The position numbers were made by a program, and so were the translations under genes. 64,000 nucleotides of DNA. Origin: an uncultured Candidatus Saccharibacteria bacterium. GTDB taxonomy: Bacteria > Patescibacteriota > Minisyncoccia > Phycocordibacterales > UBA5272. Positions within the stretch are counted from its first letter, which is position 1, and every line of letters begins with the position of its first letter. The stretch lies in NCBI GenBank assembly GCA_964544935.1, contig CAZJDZ010000004.1, positions 15,802-79,801 on the forward strand, given 5' to 3'. Under the pieces are notes generated by a model that did no database searches, was not told where the DNA came from, and worked only from the letters and a program-made list of their open reading frames with translations. Of the stretch, positions 3,477 to 49,865 are shown piece after piece.

Positions 3477-5711
3477 ATGCACCACTTTTCTTTAAGTGTG
3501 TGCTACTATAGACAAATGTCGGATTCTTATGTACATAGAAAAAAGCGAATAAAACACAGATTCTTTAAAGAATTCTTTCTTGTTATTTTTTCTTTGGGAA
3601 TTATTATACTTGCGTATGGAATAACATGGCTTGCAACCATGCAACTTCCGGATTTTAATAATTTTGAAAATAGAAACATAGCTAACTCAACAAAAATCTA
3701 CGACAGGACAGGTAAAATTGTTTTATATAATATTCATGATAATGTTCGTAGAACTGCAATCCCTATTGAAGATATAAGTCCGTATATTCAAAAGGCTACT
3801 ATTTCTATTGAAGATGCTCATTTTTATGAGCACTTTGGGTTTAGACCAACATCGTTTATTCGTGCTGTAATTACTAATATTACCTCTGGTGGTTATGCTC
3901 AAGGGGGTTCAACAATTGATCAGCAAGTTATAAAAAATGCTCTTCTTTCTCGTGAAAAAACTATTTCTCGTAAATTGAAAGAAATAATTCTTTCAATAAA
4001 ACTTGATCGTGAACTTCCTAAAGATACGATTCTTCAAATATATTTAAATGAAAGCCCTTATGGTGGAACTATTTATGGTGTTGAAGAAGCTTCTCTTACT
4101 TATTTTAATAAAAAAGCAAAGGATGTAACCTTAACCGAAGCCGCATACTTGGCAGCTCTTCCACAAGCTCCAACGTTTTATTCTCCATATGGAAAACATA
4201 GAGAAGAACTTGAAAAGAGAAAAAATCTTGTTTTAGAAAGGATGTATGAACTTAATCATATTACTAAAGAACAAAAAGATTTTTCTCAAAAAGAACAGGT
4301 AGTTTTTGAAAAAGATCTTTCAAACAGTGGTAAAGCTCTTCATTTTGTTATGTATATTCGTGAATATCTTGAAGAAAAGTATGGTATCGATATGGTTCAA
4401 AATGGAGGTCTTCGTGTTATTACAACAATTGATTATACACTTCAAAAACAATTTGAAGATATTGTAAAAGAAGGTGCATTAGAAAACATGAAGAAGTTTA
4501 AAGCTTCAAACTCTGCACTTGTTGCTATTGATCCAAAAACTGGGCAAATACTTTCTATGGTTGGTTCTCGTGATTTTTTTGATACAGAAATAGCGGGTCA
4601 ATTTAATATTGCAACAGCTTTTAGACAACCTGGATCTTCTTTTAAGCCAATTGTATATGCTGCTGCATTTAAACTTGGATACACCCCTGAAACTGTCTTG
4701 TTTGATATTCCTACTCAATTTAGTTCTCTTTGTGATTTTGAAGGAACTCCGTTGCGAGCCGGTGCTGATTCTTCAGTATGTTACATGCCAGAGAATTATG
4801 ATGGTCTTTTTAGAGGTCCTGTTTCTTTACGTGAAGCACTTGCTCAATCTCTTAATATTCCAGCAGTTAAACTTCTATATCTTACTGGTATTAATAATGT
4901 AATTACTCTTGCTCAAGCAATGGGTCTCTCAACAATTAATGATCCTAGTCGTTATGGTCTTTCTCTTGTGCTTGGTGGTGGAGAAATAACATTACTTGAA
5001 CTTACTAATGCGTACGGTGTATTTGCTAATAATGGTATGTATCATAAACAACAAGGTATTCTTGAAATACGAGATAGGGATGGAAGTATTCTTCAAAAAT
5101 TTACACAAGCAGAAACTGAAGTTCTTCCAGAATCAGTAACAACTCTTATTTCAAGTATTCTTTCTGATAATGTAGCACGAACAGCTACATATGGAGCCAA
5201 CTCTGCACTTTACTTCAGAGATAGACCTGTTGCAGTAAAAACAGGTACAACTAATGACTATAGAGATGTATGGGTTGTTGGATATACACCATCTATTGTT
5301 ATTGGTATGTGGGCAGGAAATAATGATAATACTCCTATAGATAAAAGGACAGCTGGGTTTGTACTCGCTCCTGTTTGGCGAAAATCAATGACTGTTGCTG
5401 TTGAAGGTACTCCGGTTGAGTATTTCCCTGATCCTCTCCCTAACACCTCTTCTAAGCCAATTTTAGAAGGAAAGTACTGTTCATTTAATGGTGTTCATAC
5501 TATCCTTGCTTCTGTAATAAAAAATAATCCTGCTGGAGAATACCCTATTAATCCAACAAATGATTCACAATATTTTCTTTGGGAAAATACTCTTCAGAAA
5601 TGGCTAGCAAATCATTCGCTTCCATGTGCAGGTGATACAACATCTCTTTCATCTTCAACTCCTTCAACTATAATTCCTACAGAAATAGCAACAACAACTT
5701 TTACACAATAA
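3477..5711 (+). CDS. class A penicillin-binding protein (glycosyltransferase GT51 plus transpeptidase) with C-terminal Ser/Thr-rich tail
   Basis: GT51 motifs EDAHFYEHFG and QGGSTIDQQ; transpeptidase SSFK, SxN and KTGTT motifs; N-terminal TM helix. Start uncertain (3477 or ATG at 3516) because tyrS starts divergently at 3459. Confidence 0.85.
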   Translation: MHHFSLSVCYYRQMSDSYVHRKKRIKHRFFKEFFLVIFSLGIIILAYGITWLATMQLPDFNNFENRNIANSTKIYDRTGKIVLYNIHDNVRRTAIPIEDISPYIQKATISIEDAHFYEHFGFRPTSFIRAVITNITSGGYAQGGSTIDQQVIKNALLSREKTISRKLKEIILSIKLDRELPKDTILQIYLNESPYGGTIYGVEEASLTYFNKKAKDVTLTEAAYLAALPQAPTFYSPYGKHREELEKRKNLVLERMYELNHITKEQKDFSQKEQVVFEKDLSNSGKALHFVMYIREYLEEKYGIDMVQNGGLRVITTIDYTLQKQFEDIVKEGALENMKKFKASNSALVAIDPKTGQILSMVGSRDFFDTEIAGQFNIATAFRQPGSSFKPIVYAAAFKLGYTPETVLFDIPTQFSSLCDFEGTPLRAGADSSVCYMPENYDGLFRGPVSLREALAQSLNIPAVKLLYLTGINNVITLAQAMGLSTINDPSRYGLSLVLGGGEITLLELTNAYGVFANNGMYHKQQGILEIRDRDGSILQKFTQAETEVLPESVTTLISSILSDNVARTATYGANSALYFRDRPVAVKTGTTNDYRDVWVVGYTPSIVIGMWAGNNDNTPIDKRTAGFVLAPVWRKSMTVAVEGTPVEYFPDPLPNTSSKPILEGKYCSFNGVHTILASVIKNNPAGEYPINPTNDSQYFLWENTLQKWLANHSLPCAGDTTSLSSSTPSTIIPTEIATTTFTQ

Positions 5712-37007: not shown

Positions 37008-37952
37008 ATGTCTTCCCTCTTTTCCCTCAAACAAGATTTTCTTCAGTACATAGAAATTGAAAAAGGTCGCAGTGCTCTTACTGTGCGTAACTACGACCAT
37101 TATCTGACTCGATTTTTGGATTTTGCAAAAGTAGATTCCCCTTCAGATATTACTGAAAGCATGATGCGAGAATACCGCGTGTATCTTAATCGTCATCCAG
37201 CACGGGAAGCAAAAAAAGGACAAGCCCAAGATACTCTTGATAAAAAGACTCAGAACTACCATCTCATAGCACTTCGGGCATTCTTTAAATATATTAGAAA
37301 ACGTGGTGTACAAGGGTATGACCCAGAACGTATTGAGTTAGCTAAGACATCACAGCGTGAGCTTGACCTTATCTCTGAAAAAGAATTAAACGAACTTCTC
37401 TCTGCTCCTGATACAGGAACAATCGCAGGGCTTCGTGATAAAGCTATCTTGGAACTTTTTTTCTCAACAGGGCTTCGTGTGTCTGAGCTATGCTCACTCG
37501 ATAGAGATATAGATCTTGGTAATGGTGAGATATCTGTTCGAGGAAAAGGTGGAAAAATTCGCGTGGTATTTATTTCTGGCTCTGCTCATGCAGCAGTAAA
37601 AGCATATATTAAGAACCGCGTTGATATTGATGAAGCGATGTTCATCGACCACTCCCCTCGTGCACATTCTCGTATGGTGCAAGAAGAGTCAGTCAGACTT
37701 ACCCCTAGGAGTGTCGAACGAACTGTGCAGAAATATGCAGAGCGTGTCGGTATCGCCAAGAAGTGTACCCCTCACGTACTACGTCACTCGTTCGCAACTG
37801 ATCTTCTTTATAACGGTGCTGACCTTCGTACTGTACAGATGATGCTTGGGCATGCATCAATCGCAACAACGCAGATTTATACAAATGTCACTAACAAGTT
37901 CCTCAGAGATCAGTATGAAAAGTTTCACGGGAAGAAAAAGAAAGAAGAGTAG
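37008..37952 (+). CDS. tyrosine recombinase XerC/XerD family
   Basis: HVLRHSFATDLL...LGHASIATTQIYTNV catalytic region (R-H-R-Y), N-terminal core-binding domain; 314 aa. Confidence 0.85.
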   Translation: MSSLFSLKQDFLQYIEIEKGRSALTVRNYDHYLTRFLDFAKVDSPSDITESMMREYRVYLNRHPAREAKKGQAQDTLDKKTQNYHLIALRAFFKYIRKRGVQGYDPERIELAKTSQRELDLISEKELNELLSAPDTGTIAGLRDKAILELFFSTGLRVSELCSLDRDIDLGNGEISVRGKGGKIRVVFISGSAHAAVKAYIKNRVDIDEAMFIDHSPRAHSRMVQEESVRLTPRSVERTVQKYAERVGIAKKCTPHVLRHSFATDLLYNGADLRTVQMMLGHASIATTQIYTNVTNKFLRDQYEKFHGKKKKEE

Positions 37953-43200: not shown

Positions 43201-44823
43201 ATGTCAGAAACAATTTCGAAAACTCCTCAATCTTTTTATAAATCAATTATTCATTTTTTTGCACGTCATAAAACATACACAGCTATCCTTTTTGTGGTAG
43301 CGGTCGTCATTATTTTCTTTGCACTTTTTTCTACACCAAAATCACAAAAAGAAAGTTATACAGTGGCTTTTGGTCCGCTTAAACAGTACGTGAAGATTTC
43401 TGGTCAAGTAGAATCATCAAAAGATGCAAACCTCTCTTTTCAAACCGTTGGAGCAGTTGCTTTTGTTGGTGTAAAAACAGGTGATACAGTCGAGCAAGGG
43501 AAAGTTCTCGCCACCCTATCGGCAGGAGATGCACAAGCTACATTGCTACAAGCACAAGCAAATCTTTCTAATGCACAAGCTGTTCTTGCACAATTACAGC
43601 AAGGTGCTCGCCCCGAAGAAATAGCAATTAAACAGCAAGCAGTAGATAACGCAAAAAGTTCCCTCGATCAAGCATATAACACACTTCCTGATGCGATTCA
43701 AAATGTTGACGCTACAACAGCAGATATTGTTAAAAATAAGTTCTCATCACTTTTTTTCTTAAGTAATGGAGCGTATCATCTTTCGTTTAGTTCATGTGAT
43801 CAGCGTCTTCAGGGAGAAATAGAAATTAAGCGTACGAATCTCGAAAGCACGCTTGCTGATTTTCAAACTAAAAGTTCTGTCATTACTTCTCTTTCTTCAA
43901 CACAAGCAATAGATGTTGCTTTTGACGAAGCGTACAAGGCAGCAATTGCAACCAACGATCTTGTGAACGCACTCTCCAATCTCCTCCTTGCTCCATGTAG
44001 CGCAGGCAATATAAGTCTTGATGGATACAGAGCAACACTCTCTACAGTAAAAGTAAGCATGACAGCACTCTTCTCTGATATTACTGTGAAAAGAAGCGCT
44101 CTTATTACCGCAAAGAATACCTTCAATCAAGCTTCTCGTGACCTTGATCTTACACAAGCAGGAACTGATCCGTATAGAGTTAAAGCACAAGCTGCATCAG
44201 TTTCTCAAGCAGAAGCGCAAGTTGCTTCTGCTCGCTCCGGACTTTCAAAAACAATTATTACAGCCCCTTTCAAAGGCGTGATCAGTAATATTGATCTCTC
44301 ACTTGGAGAGACAGTGACACTTGGAAAGACTGTTGTGAGCATGCTTGCAACGGATGGTTTTGAAATTGAAGCAAAAGTTCCAGAAGCTGATATTGTAAAA
44401 GTAAAAATTGGAGCAGATGTTGATGTAACGCTCGATGCATACGGCAAGGATAGTATTTTCCCTGCAAAAATTACGCGCATTAATCCGACTGCAACTACAG
44501 AAGGAACTGTTCCTGTTTACAAAGTAATTGTTACGTTTCTTGGGAAAGATGAACGTATTAGACAAGGGATGACTGCAAACGTGCAGATTATCACTGAATC
44601 AAAATCAAAAGTAATCGCAATCCCTGCTCGCTTTGTAAAAGTAAATACTGTTGATGAAGGAACAGTAACTGTGTTTGCGCAAGGAAAAGAAGAAAACAAA
44701 TCTGTTCGTTTAGGTATCAGAGGAGTTGATGGATTGATTGAAATTACAAGCGGACTTTTTGAGGGTGATGTAGTTCTCTCACCCTCTACTACAGATCGTC
44801 AGGCACAAAAACAAACTAATTAA
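43201..44823 (+). CDS. HlyD-family periplasmic adaptor/membrane fusion protein (MacA-like)
   Basis: N-terminal TM, long coiled coil, TITAPFKGVISNIDLSLGETV beta-barrel/lipoyl domains. Confidence 0.75.
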   Translation: MSETISKTPQSFYKSIIHFFARHKTYTAILFVVAVVIIFFALFSTPKSQKESYTVAFGPLKQYVKISGQVESSKDANLSFQTVGAVAFVGVKTGDTVEQGKVLATLSAGDAQATLLQAQANLSNAQAVLAQLQQGARPEEIAIKQQAVDNAKSSLDQAYNTLPDAIQNVDATTADIVKNKFSSLFFLSNGAYHLSFSSCDQRLQGEIEIKRTNLESTLADFQTKSSVITSLSSTQAIDVAFDEAYKAAIATNDLVNALSNLLLAPCSAGNISLDGYRATLSTVKVSMTALFSDITVKRSALITAKNTFNQASRDLDLTQAGTDPYRVKAQAASVSQAEAQVASARSGLSKTIITAPFKGVISNIDLSLGETVTLGKTVVSMLATDGFEIEAKVPEADIVKVKIGADVDVTLDAYGKDSIFPAKITRINPTATTEGTVPVYKVIVTFLGKDERIRQGMTANVQIITESKSKVIAIPARFVKVNTVDEGTVTVFAQGKEENKSVRLGIRGVDGLIEITSGLFEGDVVLSPSTTDRQAQKQTN

Positions 44824-44828
44824 TTTTT

Positions 44829-46151
44829 ATGAAGTCTTTTTTTAACACGATTTCGTTAGGATTCTTTCTCGCGATTCGTCAGGTAACACGGTCAAGTAAG
44901 TGGGCAACATCCCTCATCGTGTTTATCATGATGCTTACATTTCTTAACCTTGTAGCAACGAGTGGTTTTCTTGTGGGTATTGTCGAAGGAGCATCTCGTG
45001 CTTTTAAAGAACAATGGACAGGAGATCTCATGATTGTGAATCGCAATGAGAAAACATATATCGAACATACAAATGATATTGTCGAAGTGCTCTCATCATT
45101 TCCGCAGATTGATAGTTATACAACACGTATTGTTGCTGGTGCAAAAGTAGAAGCAAACTGGTGGGAGAAGCGCACAGAAGAAGATGCAAATATTGTATCT
45201 AACCAAATTGCTGGAATCGATCCAGCGCAAGAAGATAGAACAACACATCTCTCAGAAGCAGTTGTCGAAGGAGAGTGGTTGCAAGAAGGAGATACAAATG
45301 GCATCGTTCTGGGGTCTGGATATCTTGATAAATATTCTCGTGTACGTGACCTAGTATCACTACTACGTGATGTCGAACCTGGAACAACTGTGAGAGTTAC
45401 TGTTTCTGGCGCTAAAGTAACTGTTAATCCAGGAAATGAAGGTCAGGAACTTGCTAGTACTATTGATCAAAATACTGCCGTTACTAAAGATTTTATTGTA
45501 CGAGGTATTGTTGATTCAAAAGTAGCGTTTGTTTCTTCTCGAGCATATATTCTTGATAGTGAACTTAAAAAAATGCTTGGCAAAACTGAAGGAGATGTAT
45601 CAGAGATTGCCATTGTTATGAAAGAAGGTGTCGATCCATATGAAGTCAAAACCCCACTTCTTAATAATGGTTTTGGCGAGTATGCAAAAATCAATACAGC
45701 AGAAGAAGGCTCCCCTGACTTTCTTGTAAGCATCAAACTTTTCTTTAATGTGATTGGGACAATTCTTGGTTCTGTTTCTGTGGTTGTAGCACTCATCACT
45801 ATTTTTATTATCATTTATATCAACGCACTTACTCGTCGCCGACAGATTGGTATCATGAAAGCGGTTGGAGTAACTGAGTTTGCTATTGAATTTAGTTATA
45901 TCTGTCAGGCGCTTTTCTATGTATTTGTTGGTTCAGGAATTGCACTGGTGATTATTTTTGCATTTCTTAAACCGCTTATTGATGCTCATCCGATAGATAC
46001 ACCATTTGCGCTTATTGTACTTGTTGCAGAACCGGCATCTGTTGCGCTTAAATTTTTACTCGTGATGGTTGTGTCAGTATTTGCTGGGTACTTGCCTGCA
46101 CGATTTATTGTAAGCACTAACACACTTAACGCTATCCTAGGAAGAAATTAA
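44829..46151 (+). CDS. ABC transporter permease, FtsX/MacB-like
   Basis: N-terminal TM, large extracytoplasmic loop, C-terminal FtsX-like 3-TM bundle. Confidence 0.75.
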   Translation: MKSFFNTISLGFFLAIRQVTRSSKWATSLIVFIMMLTFLNLVATSGFLVGIVEGASRAFKEQWTGDLMIVNRNEKTYIEHTNDIVEVLSSFPQIDSYTTRIVAGAKVEANWWEKRTEEDANIVSNQIAGIDPAQEDRTTHLSEAVVEGEWLQEGDTNGIVLGSGYLDKYSRVRDLVSLLRDVEPGTTVRVTVSGAKVTVNPGNEGQELASTIDQNTAVTKDFIVRGIVDSKVAFVSSRAYILDSELKKMLGKTEGDVSEIAIVMKEGVDPYEVKTPLLNNGFGEYAKINTAEEGSPDFLVSIKLFFNVIGTILGSVSVVVALITIFIIIYINALTRRRQIGIMKAVGVTEFAIEFSYICQALFYVFVGSGIALVIIFAFLKPLIDAHPIDTPFALIVLVAEPASVALKFLLVMVVSVFAGYLPARFIVSTNTLNAILGRN

Positions 46152-46161
46152 TTGTACATCT

Positions 46162-46860
46162 ATGACAACACACACCAGAGAAGCAAAAGAAATGATTATT
46201 GATATACGAGATATCACCAAGAGTTTTACCGATGGAGATACAGTGACACAAGTGCTTAAAGGTATTAACCTTACCGTAGAAAAAGGTGAGTTCGTGGCAA
46301 TCATGGGACGCTCAGGAGCTGGCAAGTCCACCCTCCTCTATCAGATGTCCCTTCTTGATACTCCAACAACTGGTTCTATACGATTAGATGGTAGAGTCGT
46401 TGATGATTTTGGAAATGCAGAAAAAACAAAGTTTCGTCTTCGCGAGCTTGGGTATGTATTTCAGGACTACTCTCTTCTTCCAGAACTTACTGCACTAGAG
46501 AACATTATGGTCCCTCTTCTTATGCAAGGTGTTAGTATGAAGGCCGCAAAATCTCGCGCAGAGGAAGCTCTGACAAGTGTGAACTTGGTACATCGTAAAG
46601 ACAACCTCCCACCAGAATTATCCGGTGGTGAGCAGCAGCGTGTGTCAATTGCGCGCGCTATCACTCATAAGCCAAAGATTGTTTTTGCTGATGAACCAAC
46701 TGCTAACTTAGATACGTTTTCATCAAAGCTCGTTATGGATATTTTCAGAAAGTTAAATAAAGAAGATGGGCTTACTATTGTGATGGTGACGCACGAAGAA
46801 GATTATGGAAAGTTAGCTGATAGAATTATTAGATTGTCGGACGGTGTTGTGGTGAAGTAG
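46162..46860 (+). CDS. ABC transporter ATP-binding protein (MacB/LolD-like)
   Basis: Walker A GRSGAGKST, signature LSGGEQQRVSIARA, Walker B IVFADEPT. Confidence 0.85.
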   Translation: MTTHTREAKEMIIDIRDITKSFTDGDTVTQVLKGINLTVEKGEFVAIMGRSGAGKSTLLYQMSLLDTPTTGSIRLDGRVVDDFGNAEKTKFRLRELGYVFQDYSLLPELTALENIMVPLLMQGVSMKAAKSRAEEALTSVNLVHRKDNLPPELSGGEQQRVSIARAITHKPKIVFADEPTANLDTFSSKLVMDIFRKLNKEDGLTIVMVTHEEDYGKLADRIIRLSDGVVVK

Positions 46861-46865
46861 TTAAG

Positions 46866-46916
46866 CCGCGGAAAGTTGCGGAAAGTTGCGGAATGAACGC
46901 GGACTAATGCGGAAGT
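46866..46916. repeat. five helically phased GCGGAA direct repeats (spacing 10,10,11,10)
   Basis: GCGGAAAGTT GCGGAAAGTT GCGGAATGAAC GCGGACTAAT GCGGAAGTAT immediately after the ABC ATPase stop. Confidence 0.6.
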
Positions 46917-47127
46917 ATCATTCGGAGGAAGTGGCTCCGTTACGATCCCTGCTCGTGGAGCACTAAAAAATATTTATAAATTGTATAGATATTTTTGGTA
47001 TAAGTTAGGTAGGAACCTAACTCACAAAATATTTTTTGATTTAAACATAAAAGTGTTGTAGTGTATCTGCAACGGGTTACGCCTACCCATTCAATTAGGC
47101 GAATTCTATAATTTCTGGAGATGAATT

Positions 47128-47376
47128 GTGGCAGATGACACAAAATACACCATGCTTTTGGACGAAGGTGCAAAACTTGAAGTTGATCGGCTTCAAAGAG
47201 TCTACAGTTTAGAGACCTTAGAGACCAAGGCGGACGTCTATGATCTTGGTCTACGAGTCCTTCTTTGGATGACACAACAACAAGTTCAAGGTCGTGAATT
47301 TGGGTGTTACAGTGAAGAAGAGTTTCGACCACTTATCCTTCCTGTAACTTTGGACAAAAACAAATGGGTAAACTAA
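47128..47376 (+). CDS. small helical protein (possible ribbon-helix-helix-like regulator), GTG start
   Basis: GGAGA RBS 7 nt before GTG; 82 aa; own terminator; higher GC than surroundings. Confidence 0.4.
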   Translation: MADDTKYTMLLDEGAKLEVDRLQRVYSLETLETKADVYDLGLRVLLWMTQQQVQGREFGCYSEEEFRPLILPVTLDKNKWVN

Positions 47377-47389
47377 ATTATCTACACCA

Positions 47390-47423
47390 CCGAAAGCCAC
47401 CGCGCGTCGGTGGCTTTCTTTTT
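47390..47423 (+). terminator. intrinsic terminator (GAAAGCCACCG-CGCG-TCGGTGGCTTTCTTTTT)
   Basis: after 47128-47376. Confidence 0.55.
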
Positions 47424-47456
47424 ATATAGTTACTCTCAATCTTGTTTCACATAATA

Positions 47457-47520
47457 GTTCTAAATCTGTGTACTTTGTGGAGCACTTGAAAAACACACAA
47501 GATCATTGTATTATGTGTGT
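47457..47520 (+). promoter_or_regulatory. promoter module R1: operator-like GTTCTAAATCTGTGTAC, then TTGAAA-17-TATTAT
   Basis: motif shared with R2 and R3; drives 47543-47818. Confidence 0.45.
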
Positions 47521-47542
47521 CTTGTTCGTTTAGGAGAAAATT

Positions 47543-47818
47543 GTGAAACTTGCTGAAATCAAAATCGAAGGCGACGGTATAGTCATGGACCATAATTTCC
47601 CTTGTCCTTGCTGTGGAAAGCGTGCAGCAATTCTCGAAGGAGGACAGTTCAACCCCTGCTACTCATGTCAAGCAGAGGGACTCAACATTGTGAACCTTGT
47701 GAAGTCCCGGCCTTGGTGGATTCCGTTGAAGTTGTGGGAGCAATACTTCGGTGTAAACACATCATCGGCAAAAAGAAACAAGTCGTTCTTCTACAAAGAA
47801 ATGTCTTCAGTAATCTAA
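47543..47818 (+). CDS. small Cys-rich (zinc-ribbon-like) protein, GTG start
   Basis: AGGAGA RBS; CPCCGKR...CYSC four-Cys cluster; basic C-terminal tail; 91 aa; own promoter and terminator. Confidence 0.4.
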   Translation: MKLAEIKIEGDGIVMDHNFPCPCCGKRAAILEGGQFNPCYSCQAEGLNIVNLVKSRPWWIPLKLWEQYFGVNTSSAKRNKSFFYKEMSSVI

Positions 47819-47830
47819 CCGTCTTTCAAC

Positions 47831-47860
47831 GAAACCGTTGGAGGGCGGTTTCTTGTTTTA
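47831..47860 (+). terminator. intrinsic terminator (GAAACCG-TTGGAGGG-CGGTTTC-TTGTTTT)
   Basis: after 47543-47818. Confidence 0.5.
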
Positions 47861-47882
47861 TGTGCCCATCACATGCTCAAAT

Positions 47883-47954
47883 TTCCTCCAATCAAACGTT
47901 CTGAATCTGTGTACCATTTGGAGAACTTGACAAATTATAACAATATGATATACT
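47883..47954 (+). promoter_or_regulatory. promoter module R2: TTCCTCCAATCAAACGTTCTGAATCTGTGTAC, then TTGACA-16-TATACT
   Basis: near-consensus sigma70 promoter preceded by a motif conserved with R1 and R3. Confidence 0.5.
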
Positions 47955-47960
47955 TAATTT

Positions 47961-48185
47961 GTTAGGTTCCACTCCTTGATAGCCTGATGAGTGGTGAGGT
48001 TATCTGCTTGGTCAGCAGATTTCCAAGAAGGCTAGCGGGCCTCGAGGTTGTCGTACTCGAGAGTAACCGATAATGAAAACGACGGACCAATAAATTAAAC
48101 AGCACCAAGTGGTGCGGTCGGAGAAAGGAAAAACACCGACGCAGCGTACGCTGACGAACCCCGAGAGCGATCTCGGGGTTTTTAT
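47961..48185 (+). ncRNA. candidate structured small RNA (about 225 nt, unclassified)
   Basis: transcribed from the R2 promoter, ends in terminator ACCCCGAGA-GCGA-TCTCGGGGTTTTTT; about 50% GC against 36% genome; several local stem-loops; no ORF over 28 codons and no RBS. Confidence 0.35.
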
Positions 48186-48210
48186 ATTTTGGCTACCATA
48201 TTCTCATACT

Positions 48211-48293
48211 TCCTCCAATCAAATGTTCTGAATTTGTTTACAGTTTTGAGCTCTAAGCCTACATCTTGCGCTTTTTTGCACGTATGGTATACT
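48211..48293 (+). promoter_or_regulatory. promoter module R3: TTCCTCCAATCAAATGTTCTGAATTTGTTTAC, then TTGCGC-16-TATACT, heading a roughly 300-nt leader before nusA
   Basis: shares a 32-nt motif with R2 (4 mismatches). Confidence 0.45.
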
Positions 48294-48555
48294 AAAATAG
48301 TTAGTTTGGATGTGAGTTGTGTGTCGGCCTGTTAAGTTCAGCGCCGGCCATTTTTGTTAAAAAAATTAAAAATAAGAAAATTATTTCATCTGCTTTGTTG
48401 CATATAATTTTTGTTCCACGCGTCGTACTAGAAGTACGCCTTGGTCTCAAAAATTGTATGCGCCGCGCATCTAAAACAATTTTCTTGTTTTTTATAGTTA
48501 TACATTATTATTTTACAAACCTTGTTGCTATACGTTTTTTGCAGGATGTATTTTT

Positions 48556-48586
48556 GCTAAAAGCTGCTAGCTACAAGCTAATTGCT
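48556..48586 (+). repeat. AGCT-heptad repeat (GCTAAAAGCTGCTAGCTACAAGCTAATTGCT) just upstream of the nusA start
   Basis: 17/18 match to AGCTACAAGCTAATAGCT at 1361 and to its reverse complement at 24440. Confidence 0.55.
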
Positions 48587-48593
48587 ATTCATT

Positions 48594-49865
48594 ATGTTAG
48601 ACATCAAAGCCCTAAAAGTTGCTCTTGAGCAGCTTGAACAAGAAAAGAAGATCGCTCATGAGAAAGTTGTTGACGCAGTAGAGAAGTCACTCGCTGCTGC
48701 ATACCAAAAAGAGTATGGAAAGCGTGGACAAATTGTTCGCTGTCAGATTAACTTTGAAACAGGAGAAACAAGTTTTGAACAAGTGAAGATCGTTGTTGAT
48801 GAAACAACAGTTCGTATGCCGGTTGAAGGTGAGGAAGAGGAAGTTACTCCAGTTAAGGAAGCTGATGAAACAGCAGAAGGGCTCCTCCCTCGTTACAACG
48901 AAGAGCGTCATATTCTTCTCTCAACAGCAAAGCTTCTCAAGAAGAATGCAGAGCTTGGTGAAGAAATCGTCTTCCCACTTGATAACCAAGATGACTTCGG
49001 TCGTATCGCAGCGCAGACTGCAAAGCAGGTTATCGTCCAGAAGCTTCGTGAAGCAGAGCGTGAGAGTATCGTTGGTGAATTCACTGACAAGGAAAACACT
49101 ATTGTCTCAGGTGTTGTTCAGCGTGTAGAACGCGGAGCAGTGTTTGTTGATCTTGGTCGTACTACTGCTATCCTTCCATATGAAGAGCAGATCACACAGG
49201 AACGTCTTCGTCCTGGAGAGCGTATCCGTGCGTACCTTTTCTCTATTGAAGAAGGGTTCCGTGGACTCTCTATCCGTCTTTCACGTTCACATCCAAAATT
49301 CTTAATCGAACTTTTCAAAAATGAAAGTCAGGAAATCGCTCAAGGAACTGTAGAAATCGTAGCAGTTGCTCGTGAACCAGGAAGTCGCTCAAAGATCGCC
49401 GTAAAATCAAACGATGAACGCGTAGATCCAATCGGAGCATGTGTTGGTCAGCGTGGTGTGAGAGTATCAGCTATTACAGAAGAACTCTCTGGTGAGAAAA
49501 TCGATGTTATCGAATGGTCACCGGATGCTCGTCGTTTTATCGCGACAGCACTCTCCCCTGCTAAGGCAGTCTCTATCGAACTTGATGAAGCAGAAAAGAA
49601 AGCAACAGTTACTGTTACAAGAGATGAGCAGTCACTCGCTATTGGAAAAGGAGGACAGAACGTTCGTCTTGCTGCTAAACTTACTGGATGGAAGATTGAT
49701 ATTGTTTCTGGTGGTGAAATGGTTGCAGAGGCTGATGAAGCTGGCATCCTAACAGCACAGAGTACTGTTACTGATGAAACAATCACAGAAGAAGTAGAAG
49801 AAGTTCTTGAAGCTCTTAATGTTACAGAAGAAGTTGTAGCAGAAACTGTAGAAGAAGCTAAATAG
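48594..49865 (+). CDS. nusA: transcription termination/antitermination factor NusA
   Basis: N-terminal domain, S1 and two KH domains, acidic C-terminal tail; ORF track start 48582 is TTG. Confidence 0.9.
   Translation: MLDIKALKVALEQLEQEKKIAHEKVVDAVEKSLAAAYQKEYGKRGQIVRCQINFETGETSFEQVKIVVDETTVRMPVEGEEEEVTPVKEADETAEGLLPRYNEERHILLSTAKLLKKNAELGEEIVFPLDNQDDFGRIAAQTAKQVIVQKLREAERESIVGEFTDKENTIVSGVVQRVERGAVFVDLGRTTAILPYEEQITQERLRPGERIRAYLFSIEEGFRGLSIRLSRSHPKFLIELFKNESQEIAQGTVEIVAVAREPGSRSKIAVKSNDERVDPIGACVGQRGVRVSAITEELSGEKIDVIEWSPDARRFIATALSPAKAVSIELDEAEKKATVTVTRDEQSLAIGKGGQNVRLAAKLTGWKIDIVSGGEMVAEADEAGILTAQSTVTDETITEEVEEVLEALNVTEEVVAETVEEAK

Follow-up and report, generated by a model that had tools for sequence, protein, structure and literature searches.

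A putative array of self-contained mini-gene cassettes joined by a conserved ~70-nt element upstream of nusA in Candidatus Saccharibacteria

Introduction

The PeSL modules of T4-like phages are mobile regulatory cassettes that combine a sigma70-like promoter with a stem-loop; the promoter lies within a palindrome, and homologous recombination between PeSL copies, with mini-circles, has been proposed for these phages (PMC2839356, PMC4122927). Here we analyze a 64-kb stretch of a Candidatus Saccharibacteria contig (the window), in which a 1.35-kb island between an ABC exporter operon and nusA carries three direct copies of a ~70-nt repeat, R, and small units with their own predicted promoters and terminators. 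This island is probably a three-unit array of self-contained mini-gene cassettes, in a format specific to one Candidatus Saccharibacteria lineage. PeSL is the closest described system: its defining sequence features are present at our locus, while its genomic setting is not. In both, a composite module between genes combines a strong sigma70-like promoter with an overlapping or adjoining stem-loop that acts as a terminator (here predicted), and both occur as many repeats in hyperplastic regions, flanking small ORFans (orphan open reading frames, ORFs) at the end points of indels or replacements between close relatives. The PeSL-type palindrome across -35 to +1 has fold z scores of -4 to -11 in eight relatives; in the window it reaches z=-2.75 at the second cassette promoter (P2) and is not significant at the first (P1). 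The two systems differ in that ours lies on a chromosome of the candidate phyla radiation (CPR), next to nusA, an ABC exporter, tRNA or ribosomal-protein genes, with 0 viral matches, and has an extra ~70-nt R block, its most conserved part, together with anchoring at tRNA-Asn. Mini-circles are a feature of PeSL, whereas the cassettes described here are known from sequence alone.

Other systems share single aspects of this organization. Integrons, including sedentary chromosomal integrons, are one-orientation arrays of small unknown genes with a conserved repeat and a shuffled repertoire. The array format and the shuffling between genomes are the same here, but there is no IntI, no attC structure and no common Pc promoter, and each cassette forms an independent transcription unit. 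Phage morons are single genes with their own promoter and terminator between unrelated genes; they resemble the cassettes in being inserted between such genes without disturbing them, and differ in lacking a shared flanking element or arrays, the context here being chromosomal. In Neisseria minimal mobile elements and Acinetobacter pdif modules, cargo is exchanged between conserved flanks by host recombination, with no transposase of its own. Small cargo modules between fixed conserved flanks are common to these and to our arrays, although the flank is here a dedicated ~70-nt repeat in place of housekeeping genes or 28-bp Xer sites, and R lacks the dif-like 11-6-11 architecture of pdif. Tycheposons of Prochlorococcus are tRNA-anchored integrative islands (bioRxiv 10.1101/2020.12.28.424599). 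The likeness lies in a variable island that extends from a tRNA 3' end in a streamlined genome, with a partial tRNA 3' end at the boundary (window 46939-46963), and the differences lie in the absence of an integrase in or beside our arrays, in units of 0.3-0.8 kb and not kilobases, and in a joint that has no more than 7 nt in common with the tRNA.

Saccharibacteria, like other members of the CPR, combine a tiny genome with a life on other bacteria, and few classical mobile elements are thought to occur in them. The ways in which new genes are acquired and tried out in such organisms are an open question, and a literature search returned nothing relevant on arrays of this kind in Saccharibacteria or Patescibacteria. 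If our interpretation is right, standard plug-in cassettes located at tRNA-Asn and occasionally seeded in front of nusA or in a ribosomal-protein operon would constitute a testable mechanism of gene flux, and would carry the PeSL principle beyond T4-like phages, onto cellular chromosomes. Should R also belong to a capture system, ultra-small, host-dependent bacteria could trade ORFan genes and small RNAs. The ~70-nt R may serve as a searchable marker of hypervariable cargo, such as ORFan proteins, a new ~225-nt RNA and a tRNA-Asn-like RNA, and R modules may offer natural strong promoter and terminator parts, as predicted, for the few cultivable Saccharibacteria.

Results

A hypervariable slot upstream of nusA

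The island is preceded by a three-gene ABC exporter operon and followed by nusA. A sequence-only reading of this DNA had described modular promoter-gene-terminator units that share a conserved element, and this description stands, the segment being an insertion relative to close relatives. We compared the slot in eight relatives whose NusA proteins are 88-97% identical (L-numbers denote comparison loci from other genomes or metagenomes). Close relatives (NusA 92-97% identical) match the order of the window on both sides of the slot. On the left, colinearity with L043, whose NusA is 94% identical, extends through 46916 (95.9% identity), and it ends at 46853-46862, around the ATPase stop, in L101, L044 and L046/L047. 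On the right, it is regained at 48263-48265, 1-3 bases before the TTGCGC -35 box, in L043 (92.7%), L101 and L044, and at 48308 in L046/L047. The variable segment with its three-cassette array thus spans 46917-48262, from the ABC exporter operon to the native nusA promoter; its features, like the flanking nusA promoter and GCGGAA units described below, lie on the + strand.

The slot is filled differently in each group of relatives: a 266/268-aa gene in L043, L046 and L047, a 149-aa gene in L044, two genes on the reverse strand in L101, a 2'-5' RNA ligase gene in L103 and L104, and an altogether different arrangement in L048/L049, giving six different contents in total among close relatives. No R was detected there by nhmmer. 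Diverged copies that we had suspected upstream of the nusA promoter in L043, and in L004, were rejected, as the nhmmer matches were not significant and the MAFFT alignments reached ~60% identity. By this comparison, the segment at 46917-48262 is a lineage-specific filling of a hypervariable slot, whose earlier contents it has replaced.

The boundaries make R3 part of the insert and assign the TTGCGC...TATACT promoter with its long leader to nusA. This promoter (TTGCGC-16-TATACT, 48267-48294, with a TGG extended -10) and its ~300-nt leader occupy 48267-48593, outside the cassette system. The sequence-only reading had counted it among three strong cassette promoters. It falls below the threshold of the promoter scan and contains no palindrome (fold z=-0.15), but is conserved at 89-93% identity in L043, L044 and L101, which have no R; it is thus a genuine promoter candidate, native to nusA. 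Two further proposals were not borne out. The GC content of the island (0.38-0.45) equals that of its flanks and is neither elevated nor atypical, and the island cannot be said to interrupt a rimP-nusA arrangement, since rimP is upstream of nusA in 0/8 relatives.

The R element is a clade-wide repeat

Of a 32-nt motif said to precede each of the three promoters, two copies are exact (47883-47914 and 48210-48241; 0 expected in shuffles), and the third is diverged, with a 17-nt core at 47457-47473. A repeat search extended the copies to ~60 nt, and a profile defined an element of ~70 nt with three direct copies in one orientation, 441 and 327 nt apart. R1 (47419-47485; profile match 47419-47488, nhmmer E=8.5e-12) is the diverged copy and ends in GGAGCAC. 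R2 (47855-47926; profile match 47855-47929, E=1.2e-17) ends in GGAGAAC. R3 (48179-48262; profile match 48179-48255, E=6e-17) forms the last part of the insert and has a degenerate 3' end, TGAGCTC. The inverted repeat GTTCT(N20)AGAAC, which had been attributed to all copies, is found in R2 only, the other two having GGAGCAC and TGAGCTC at that place.

The nhmmer profile, built from several copies, found no further R in the 64-kb window. The core GTTCWGAAY is absent from the rest of the window, and we rejected the idea that R is a general operator of this genome. Exact-pattern scans of genome and metagenome collections, followed by a profile search, yielded 39 distinct copies, those of the window included, on about 19 contigs, all labelled Candidatus Saccharibacteria or Patescibacteria; none of 2.9 million viral contigs gave a match. 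Within the window R is restricted to the island, but the element is not private to this locus: R is a repeat of the clade, and its copies are the boundaries of shuffled cassettes. A locus typically holds 2-6 copies, 0.3-0.8 kb apart and oriented as the genes between them (L001, L009, L023/L091, L088).

The 5' end of each R falls within the T-tract of an intrinsic terminator, as predicted. Based on alignment and information content, the element consists, from 5' to 3', of the terminator hairpin, TTTCTTTTTATA, TACTCACCACATTCTCATACTTCC, the near-invariant core TCCAATCAAAnGTTCTGAAC, and CTGTGTACCnTTTGGAGCAC, and it ends in ...TTTTATATACTCACCACATTCTCATACTTCCTCCAATCAAAnGTTCTGAACCTGTGTACCnTTTGGAGCAC. 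The 20-nt core reaches 1.8-2 bits per position, and its invariant sequence is TCCAATCAAANGTTCTGAAC. Because the core is so nearly invariant, a sequence-specific DNA-binding factor that acts in trans and is encoded elsewhere is plausible. The hairpins in front of R vary in sequence, and one family (CCACCGAAAGCCACCGCGCGTTCGGTGG) recurs behind unrelated genes. Overall, the scan returned 10 terminator-like sites where 2.6 were expected. The sole inverted repeat of the R consensus, TCCTCCAATC/GTTTGGAGCA, has its arms 22 nt apart. Two copies from different genomes (L084 ~1319-1408 and L001 ~5611-5644) are interrupted at an identical position of the core, which is otherwise invariant: an inserted 21-nt GC-rich hairpin (CCTGCC...GGCAGG) separates TCCAA from TCAAAAG.

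The sequence after GGAGCAC falls into several classes. In about half of the copies it is a TTGACA promoter within a palindrome (class a); the palindromes have arms of 13-17 bp that differ in sequence and retain their complementarity. Class (b) consists of TTGAAAAGCACC, a hairpin and then a leader common to NADAR cassettes, and class (c) of ATAAAATCTTAGG and a hairpin. The remaining copies are followed by assorted A-tract/hairpin/T-tract structures. R1 and R2 run directly into sigma70-type promoters.

Several identities for R were considered and rejected. It shares the heptamer GGAGCAC alone with tRNA, a score reached by 330/2000 shuffles, and is not regarded as tRNA-derived. RNAalifold predicts only a 6-bp stem (-3.5 kcal/mol) with essentially no covariation, and no Rfam family matches the element, which speaks against a folded RNA. 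The element has no suitable inverted arms and no 11-6-11 architecture, as a recombinase core or dif-like site would. Finally, it is not a repeat of the miniature inverted-repeat transposable element or repetitive extragenic palindrome type, as it lacks terminal inverted repeats, 3/3 window copies fall inside the island, and those at other loci form clusters in arrays.

Cassettes are mosaic and differ in order between genomes

In the relatives, cassettes are mostly found head to tail downstream of tRNA-Asn, with an order and neighbours that vary by genome. They are built of interchangeable parts: a sigma70-type promoter that usually lies within a palindrome, then a leader, an RNA or a small ORFan gene, an intrinsic terminator and, directly behind its T-tract, R. 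Clustering of the ORFs of the arrays revealed the same protein families in different orders, plus many singletons, and 10/10 cargo proteins tested have no Pfam family. Leaders, terminators, and terminators together with R recur beside unrelated genes in other genomes. The R copies themselves follow the same pattern: 26/29 are closer to a copy at another locus than to any in their own array, mean identity being 0.67 within arrays and 0.69 between loci. Window copies are 0.88-0.89 identical to copies in other genomes, compared with 0.73 to their array neighbours (0.89 and 0.73 for R2). These values argue against recent local duplication and array-wide homogenisation, and imply that an R moves together with its cassette, selection preserving the core.

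The first cassette of the window contains a leader module at 47056-47110, to which blastn aligned L001 4418-4472 and L009 3143-3197 (82-84% identity over 55 nt); both of these lie upstream of NADAR genes that are unrelated to the gene found here. This gene, at 47128-47376, encodes an 82-aa ORFan. Its ribosome-binding site (GGAG, 8 nt before the GTG start) and its own terminator (47392-47418, scan) agree with the sequence-only reading. The label of a ribbon-helix-helix (RHH)-like protein found no backing, as there is no Pfam, PHROG or PADLOC family, and the single-sequence AlphaFold model (predicted local distance difference test score, pLDDT, of 58.6, too weak to exclude RHH) shows helices at 4-26, 34-53 and 63-70 and no strand. 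The protein had also been put forward as the factor that binds the motif. Its only match among 5.8 billion proteins is the identical protein itself, and tblastn did not find it on the ~19 other R-bearing contigs; without a homolog at any other R-bearing locus, it is not the factor of R. The terminator belongs to a family that is reused behind unrelated genes, and its region (47384-47433) aligns with L023 4371-4416 at 93% identity and with L001 3368-3416 at 88%.

The second cassette starts with P1 (TTGAAA-17-TATTAT, 47486-47514), which, like P2 below, was recovered by the scan as originally reported; the 7-bp palindrome in P1 falls short of significance (z=-0.66). The 91-aa zinc-ribbon protein encoded at 47543-47818 was correctly recognized in the sequence-only reading: five homologs (P0001-P0005) are 71-86% identical and share an invariant CPCC...CxxC. 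A profile search added 119 representatives of small zinc-ribbon proteins as remote relatives, none of them in Pfam, and neither this protein nor the 82-aa protein has a PHROG family. AlphaFold models of the two small proteins are of too low quality for a fold search (pLDDT 45.6 here). The homologs occur in other contexts: after the tRNA-Asn-like X RNA (see below) beside tRNA-Asn in L004, within the tRNA-Asn array of L001 with a different downstream partner, and behind rplX (L24) in the ribosomal-protein operon of L005-L008. In L005 (2662-3788), a further Saccharibacteria contig, and likewise in L006-L008, an array of a 112-aa gene, the 91-aa homolog and an 81-aa gene directly follows rplX. The terminator of the cassette is at 47817-47852 (scan), and terminator plus R2 (47814-47933) are 85% identical to L009 3273-3391, which lies there behind a different upstream sequence.

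In the third cassette, P2 (TTGACA-16-TATACT, 47927-47954) is embedded in the palindrome GAACTTGACAAATTA / TAATTTGTTAGGTTC (47923-47969; DNA fold z=-2.75), which is weaker than the 13-17-bp version of the relatives. It is predicted to drive a ~225-nt RNA from about 47961 to 48186, the 5' end being placed from the -10 box, with a terminator at 48156-48181 (scan). The earlier description of this transcript as non-coding agrees with the lack of a conserved ORF in 47958-48186, where the only ORF, of 28 codons, is interrupted by TAG in the homolog. This single homolog (L058 3860-3595), which directly follows tRNA-Asn, matches the unit at 94% identity, the -35 box and the terminator included. The RNA folds more stably than shuffled sequences (z=-3.4), and substitutions in its predicted stems keep pairing in 4/4 cases between the two sequences. 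Rfam 15 returned no match at gathering thresholds; within 46800-48650 only chance-level hits appeared (E>0.6), and none in L058. Given the absence of an Rfam match, the stable fold, the broken ORF and the retained pairing, we treat the third unit as a non-coding RNA, tentatively one that may belong to no known family. A hammerhead, considered for the CUGAUGA in the RNA, is not supported by Rfam.

The leader of the 82-aa gene contains, at 47012-47032, the sequence GGAACCTAAC within a GTTAGGT...ACCTAAC palindrome. It is complementary to GTTAGGTTCC at 47950-47970, where the 225-nt RNA is predicted to start, and pairing between this RNA and the 82-aa mRNA leader is possible on this basis.

R ends and the tRNA-Asn 3' end are interchangeable

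A tRNA-Asn(GTT) gene heads the arrays in L001, L004, L023/L091 and L058 (ARAGORN and Rfam). The window has no intact tRNA according to ARAGORN. Its insert does contain, towards the left end at 46939-46963, a tRNA-Asn 3'-end fragment, GTTACGATCCCTGCTCGTGGAGCAC, that runs from the T-loop to the discriminator and ends in GGAGCAC. This 24-nt fragment matches the L058 tRNA-Asn at 21/24 positions with one gap, a score reached by 0/2000 shuffles, whereas each R repeats GGAGCA(C) only.

Comparison of the junctions was informative. In L001, the tRNA end ...CCGCGGAGCAG (GGAGCAG) is directly joined to ATAAAAGTTTAG and a hairpin, followed by a structured RNA that we call X. In L058, the tRNA end ...CCACGGAGCAC (GGAGCAC) is separated by ~400 nt from the colinear ATAAAATCTTAG, hairpin and X. 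The ~400-nt unit consists of a class (b) remnant, a promoter, the RNA of the window, a terminator, and an R ending in ...TTTGGAGCAC (GGAGCAC). The R end is joined to a ATAAAATCTTAG-type flank in L009 and L024 as well. From these joins it follows that an R end is interchangeable with the tRNA end at GGAGCA, and L001 and L058 can be read as the empty and the occupied state of one site.

The X RNA is 120-230 nt long, structured, and found next to tRNA-Asn at L058 3490-3372 (-), L004 5689-5918 and L009 ~7285-7140 (-), with further sites at L024 5746-, L084 648- and L001 2158-. The 5' GCTCCGCGAG and the 3' CTCGCGGAGC of X pair with each other, a hairpin inside it shows covariation between genomes, and its last ~20 nt are the 3' end of tRNA-Asn; Rfam has no match for it. 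X may derive from a tRNA, or it may represent two att-like sites in inverted orientation.

Proposed cassette exchange and a possible capture system

We propose that terminator, R and palindromic promoter act together as one composite module, which would end the upstream unit, insulate it, and restart transcription for the next one. Such a module would allow cassettes to enter in front of essential genes without polar effects. At this locus, three foreign units could be expressed without disturbing nusA, as nusA has kept its own promoter. The module would also supply a conserved joint for the exchange of cassettes, either by homologous recombination between R copies, for instance after DNA uptake, or by a trans-encoded recombinase acting at the GGAGCA(C) end. 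The precise interchange of tRNA and R ends, together with the near-invariant core, favours a specific protein.

In its more specific form, this proposal makes R the attachment site of an unrecognised CPR cassette-capture system that docks at the tRNA-Asn 3' end (GGAGCA) and whose recombinase acts in trans. Such a system would be functionally analogous to the integron, except that promoter and terminator come with each cassette. We regard this as a tentative possibility that is rather unlikely to be correct as it stands. The recombinase could be the single Xer-like enzyme or a protein that is not recognised as a recombinase. The only tyrosine recombinase in the window is Xer-like (~37341-37916, +) and lies in conserved synteny; by that synteny it appears to be a housekeeping gene, and it may nevertheless be considered a candidate for the trans-acting enzyme. 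The protein is 87% identical to one encoded ~6 kb upstream of nusA in L048/L049.

Several observations weigh against cassette exchange as outlined here. That the sole tyrosine recombinase of the window lies in conserved synteny is one of them. No recombinase was found by Pfam analysis of neighbours in the 6-14 kb around five tRNA-Asn arrays, and R lacks inverted arms 6-8 bp apart, as in classical tyrosine-recombinase core sites. The similarity of R to tRNA is confined to the heptamer and, as stated, is not significant (330/2000 shuffles). No R marks the left end of the insert (46917), so the event in the window was not a simple R-by-R exchange. Taken together, the missing recombinase, the missing core-site architecture and the left junction off R speak against a simple integrase model. 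Homologous recombination alone, in turn, leaves the most conserved part of R, a core that is neither promoter nor terminator, unexplained. Promoters, terminators and RNA are all predictions.

A phage origin was rejected because no viral contig matched R and neither protein has a PHROG family. PADLOC gave no defence-system match except a weak one for the NADAR protein, and a defence island was rejected as well.

Alternative explanations

Alternatively, R might be the site at which a single transcription factor, acting in trans as an activator, silencer or anti-silencer, controls all cassette promoters together; the link to variable regions would then be secondary. The fixed orientation of R relative to transcription, its near-invariant 20-nt core, as expected for a protein site, and its conservation without homogenisation within arrays are consistent with such a regulon. 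So is the presence of a TTGACA-like -35 within 4-9 nt of the GGAGC end, plus a TATAnT -10, in ~20/39 copies. However, R lies wholly upstream of the -35, and about half of the copies precede a terminator-like hairpin and not a promoter. Copies differ by several nt in how far R lies from the -35, whereas the distance from the upstream terminator to R is fixed. R3 is at a different distance from the nusA promoter, which is conserved in relatives without R, and the 21-nt hairpin is tolerated inside the core in two copies. Moreover, a regulon leaves unexplained why R ends are interchangeable with the tRNA-Asn end and coincide with indel boundaries. The motif as an operator of the three promoters, as first proposed, is not supported by these data, and we consider the regulon unlikely.

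R could instead act at the RNA level. It would be transcribed by terminator read-through or from a 5' TAnnnT box, and the transcript would end at the following A-tract/hairpin/T-tract. With its CAUACUUCCUCC, which can pair with a Shine-Dalgarno sequence and AUG, R would then serve as a multicopy small RNA directed against ribosome-binding sites, or as a 3'-UTR (untranslated region) element; the streptococcal csRNAs are a possible analogue. In favour of this reading, an A-rich run leads into a hairpin and a T-run in every class of sequence after R, the reverse complement of the core reads GGAGGAAGTATG, and a folded RNA should tolerate the hairpin insertion of the two copies. Yet no -35 or extended -10 precedes the TAnnnT box, the upstream terminators are predicted to be strong, and the stem described above is weak, with essentially no covariation and no Rfam match; we judge this reading improbable.

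The strand opposite to R has a feature of its own. The reverse complement of the conserved CATACTTCCTCC in the core (window 47876-47892 and 48203-48219) is a perfect Shine-Dalgarno sequence, spacer and ATG, after which a mini-ORF of 3-4 codons follows in many copies, the sense strand being anti-SD/anti-AUG.

A tandem duplication of the nusA upstream region, with small ORFs and RNA as incidental contents, would account for direct, same-orientation, close repeats (441 and 327 nt), but is very hard to reconcile with copies that are closer to other genomes (0.88-0.89) than to their neighbours (0.73), with a nusA promoter that is not duplicated and stands in relatives without R, and with a 91-aa gene and an RNA conserved elsewhere in other contexts. 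A classical integron or CALIN (an attC cluster without integrase), with R as the attC site, can be dismissed to the same degree: same-orientation arrays of small, mostly unknown genes split by a conserved 60-130-nt repeat do recall Vibrio VCR arrays, but R lacks the imperfect palindrome of attC sites with its RYYYAAC...GTTRRRY ends, the cassettes carry promoters and terminators of their own, and no IntI-like gene adjoins any array.

Flanking features of the locus

The exporter operon upstream of the cassette array consists of genes for an HlyD-like exporter protein (43201-44823), an FtsX permease (44829-46151) and an ABC ATPase (46162-46860, stop codon 46858-46860). Five GCGGAA units (46868-46914) follow in the conserved flank, outside the insert. 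They begin right after the ATPase stop with 10-11-nt phasing (10/10/11/10 nt), and L043, the closest relative, has exactly one 10-nt unit fewer. The array looks like a helically phased protein-binding array, as far as its spacing goes.

Downstream of the island, the nusA leader contains an AT-rich stretch of ~140 nt with 36-nt inverted arms (48355-48502). Similar copies (70-74%) are present in L101/L102 in both orientations, one of them between ppa and tig, and the stretch may be a small dispersed palindromic repeat within the leader. The nusA gene itself extends from 48594 to 49865. The NusA protein encoded here has 423 aa, compared with 444-456 aa in its closest homologs (92-97% identical), and the difference lies in the C-terminal acidic tail.

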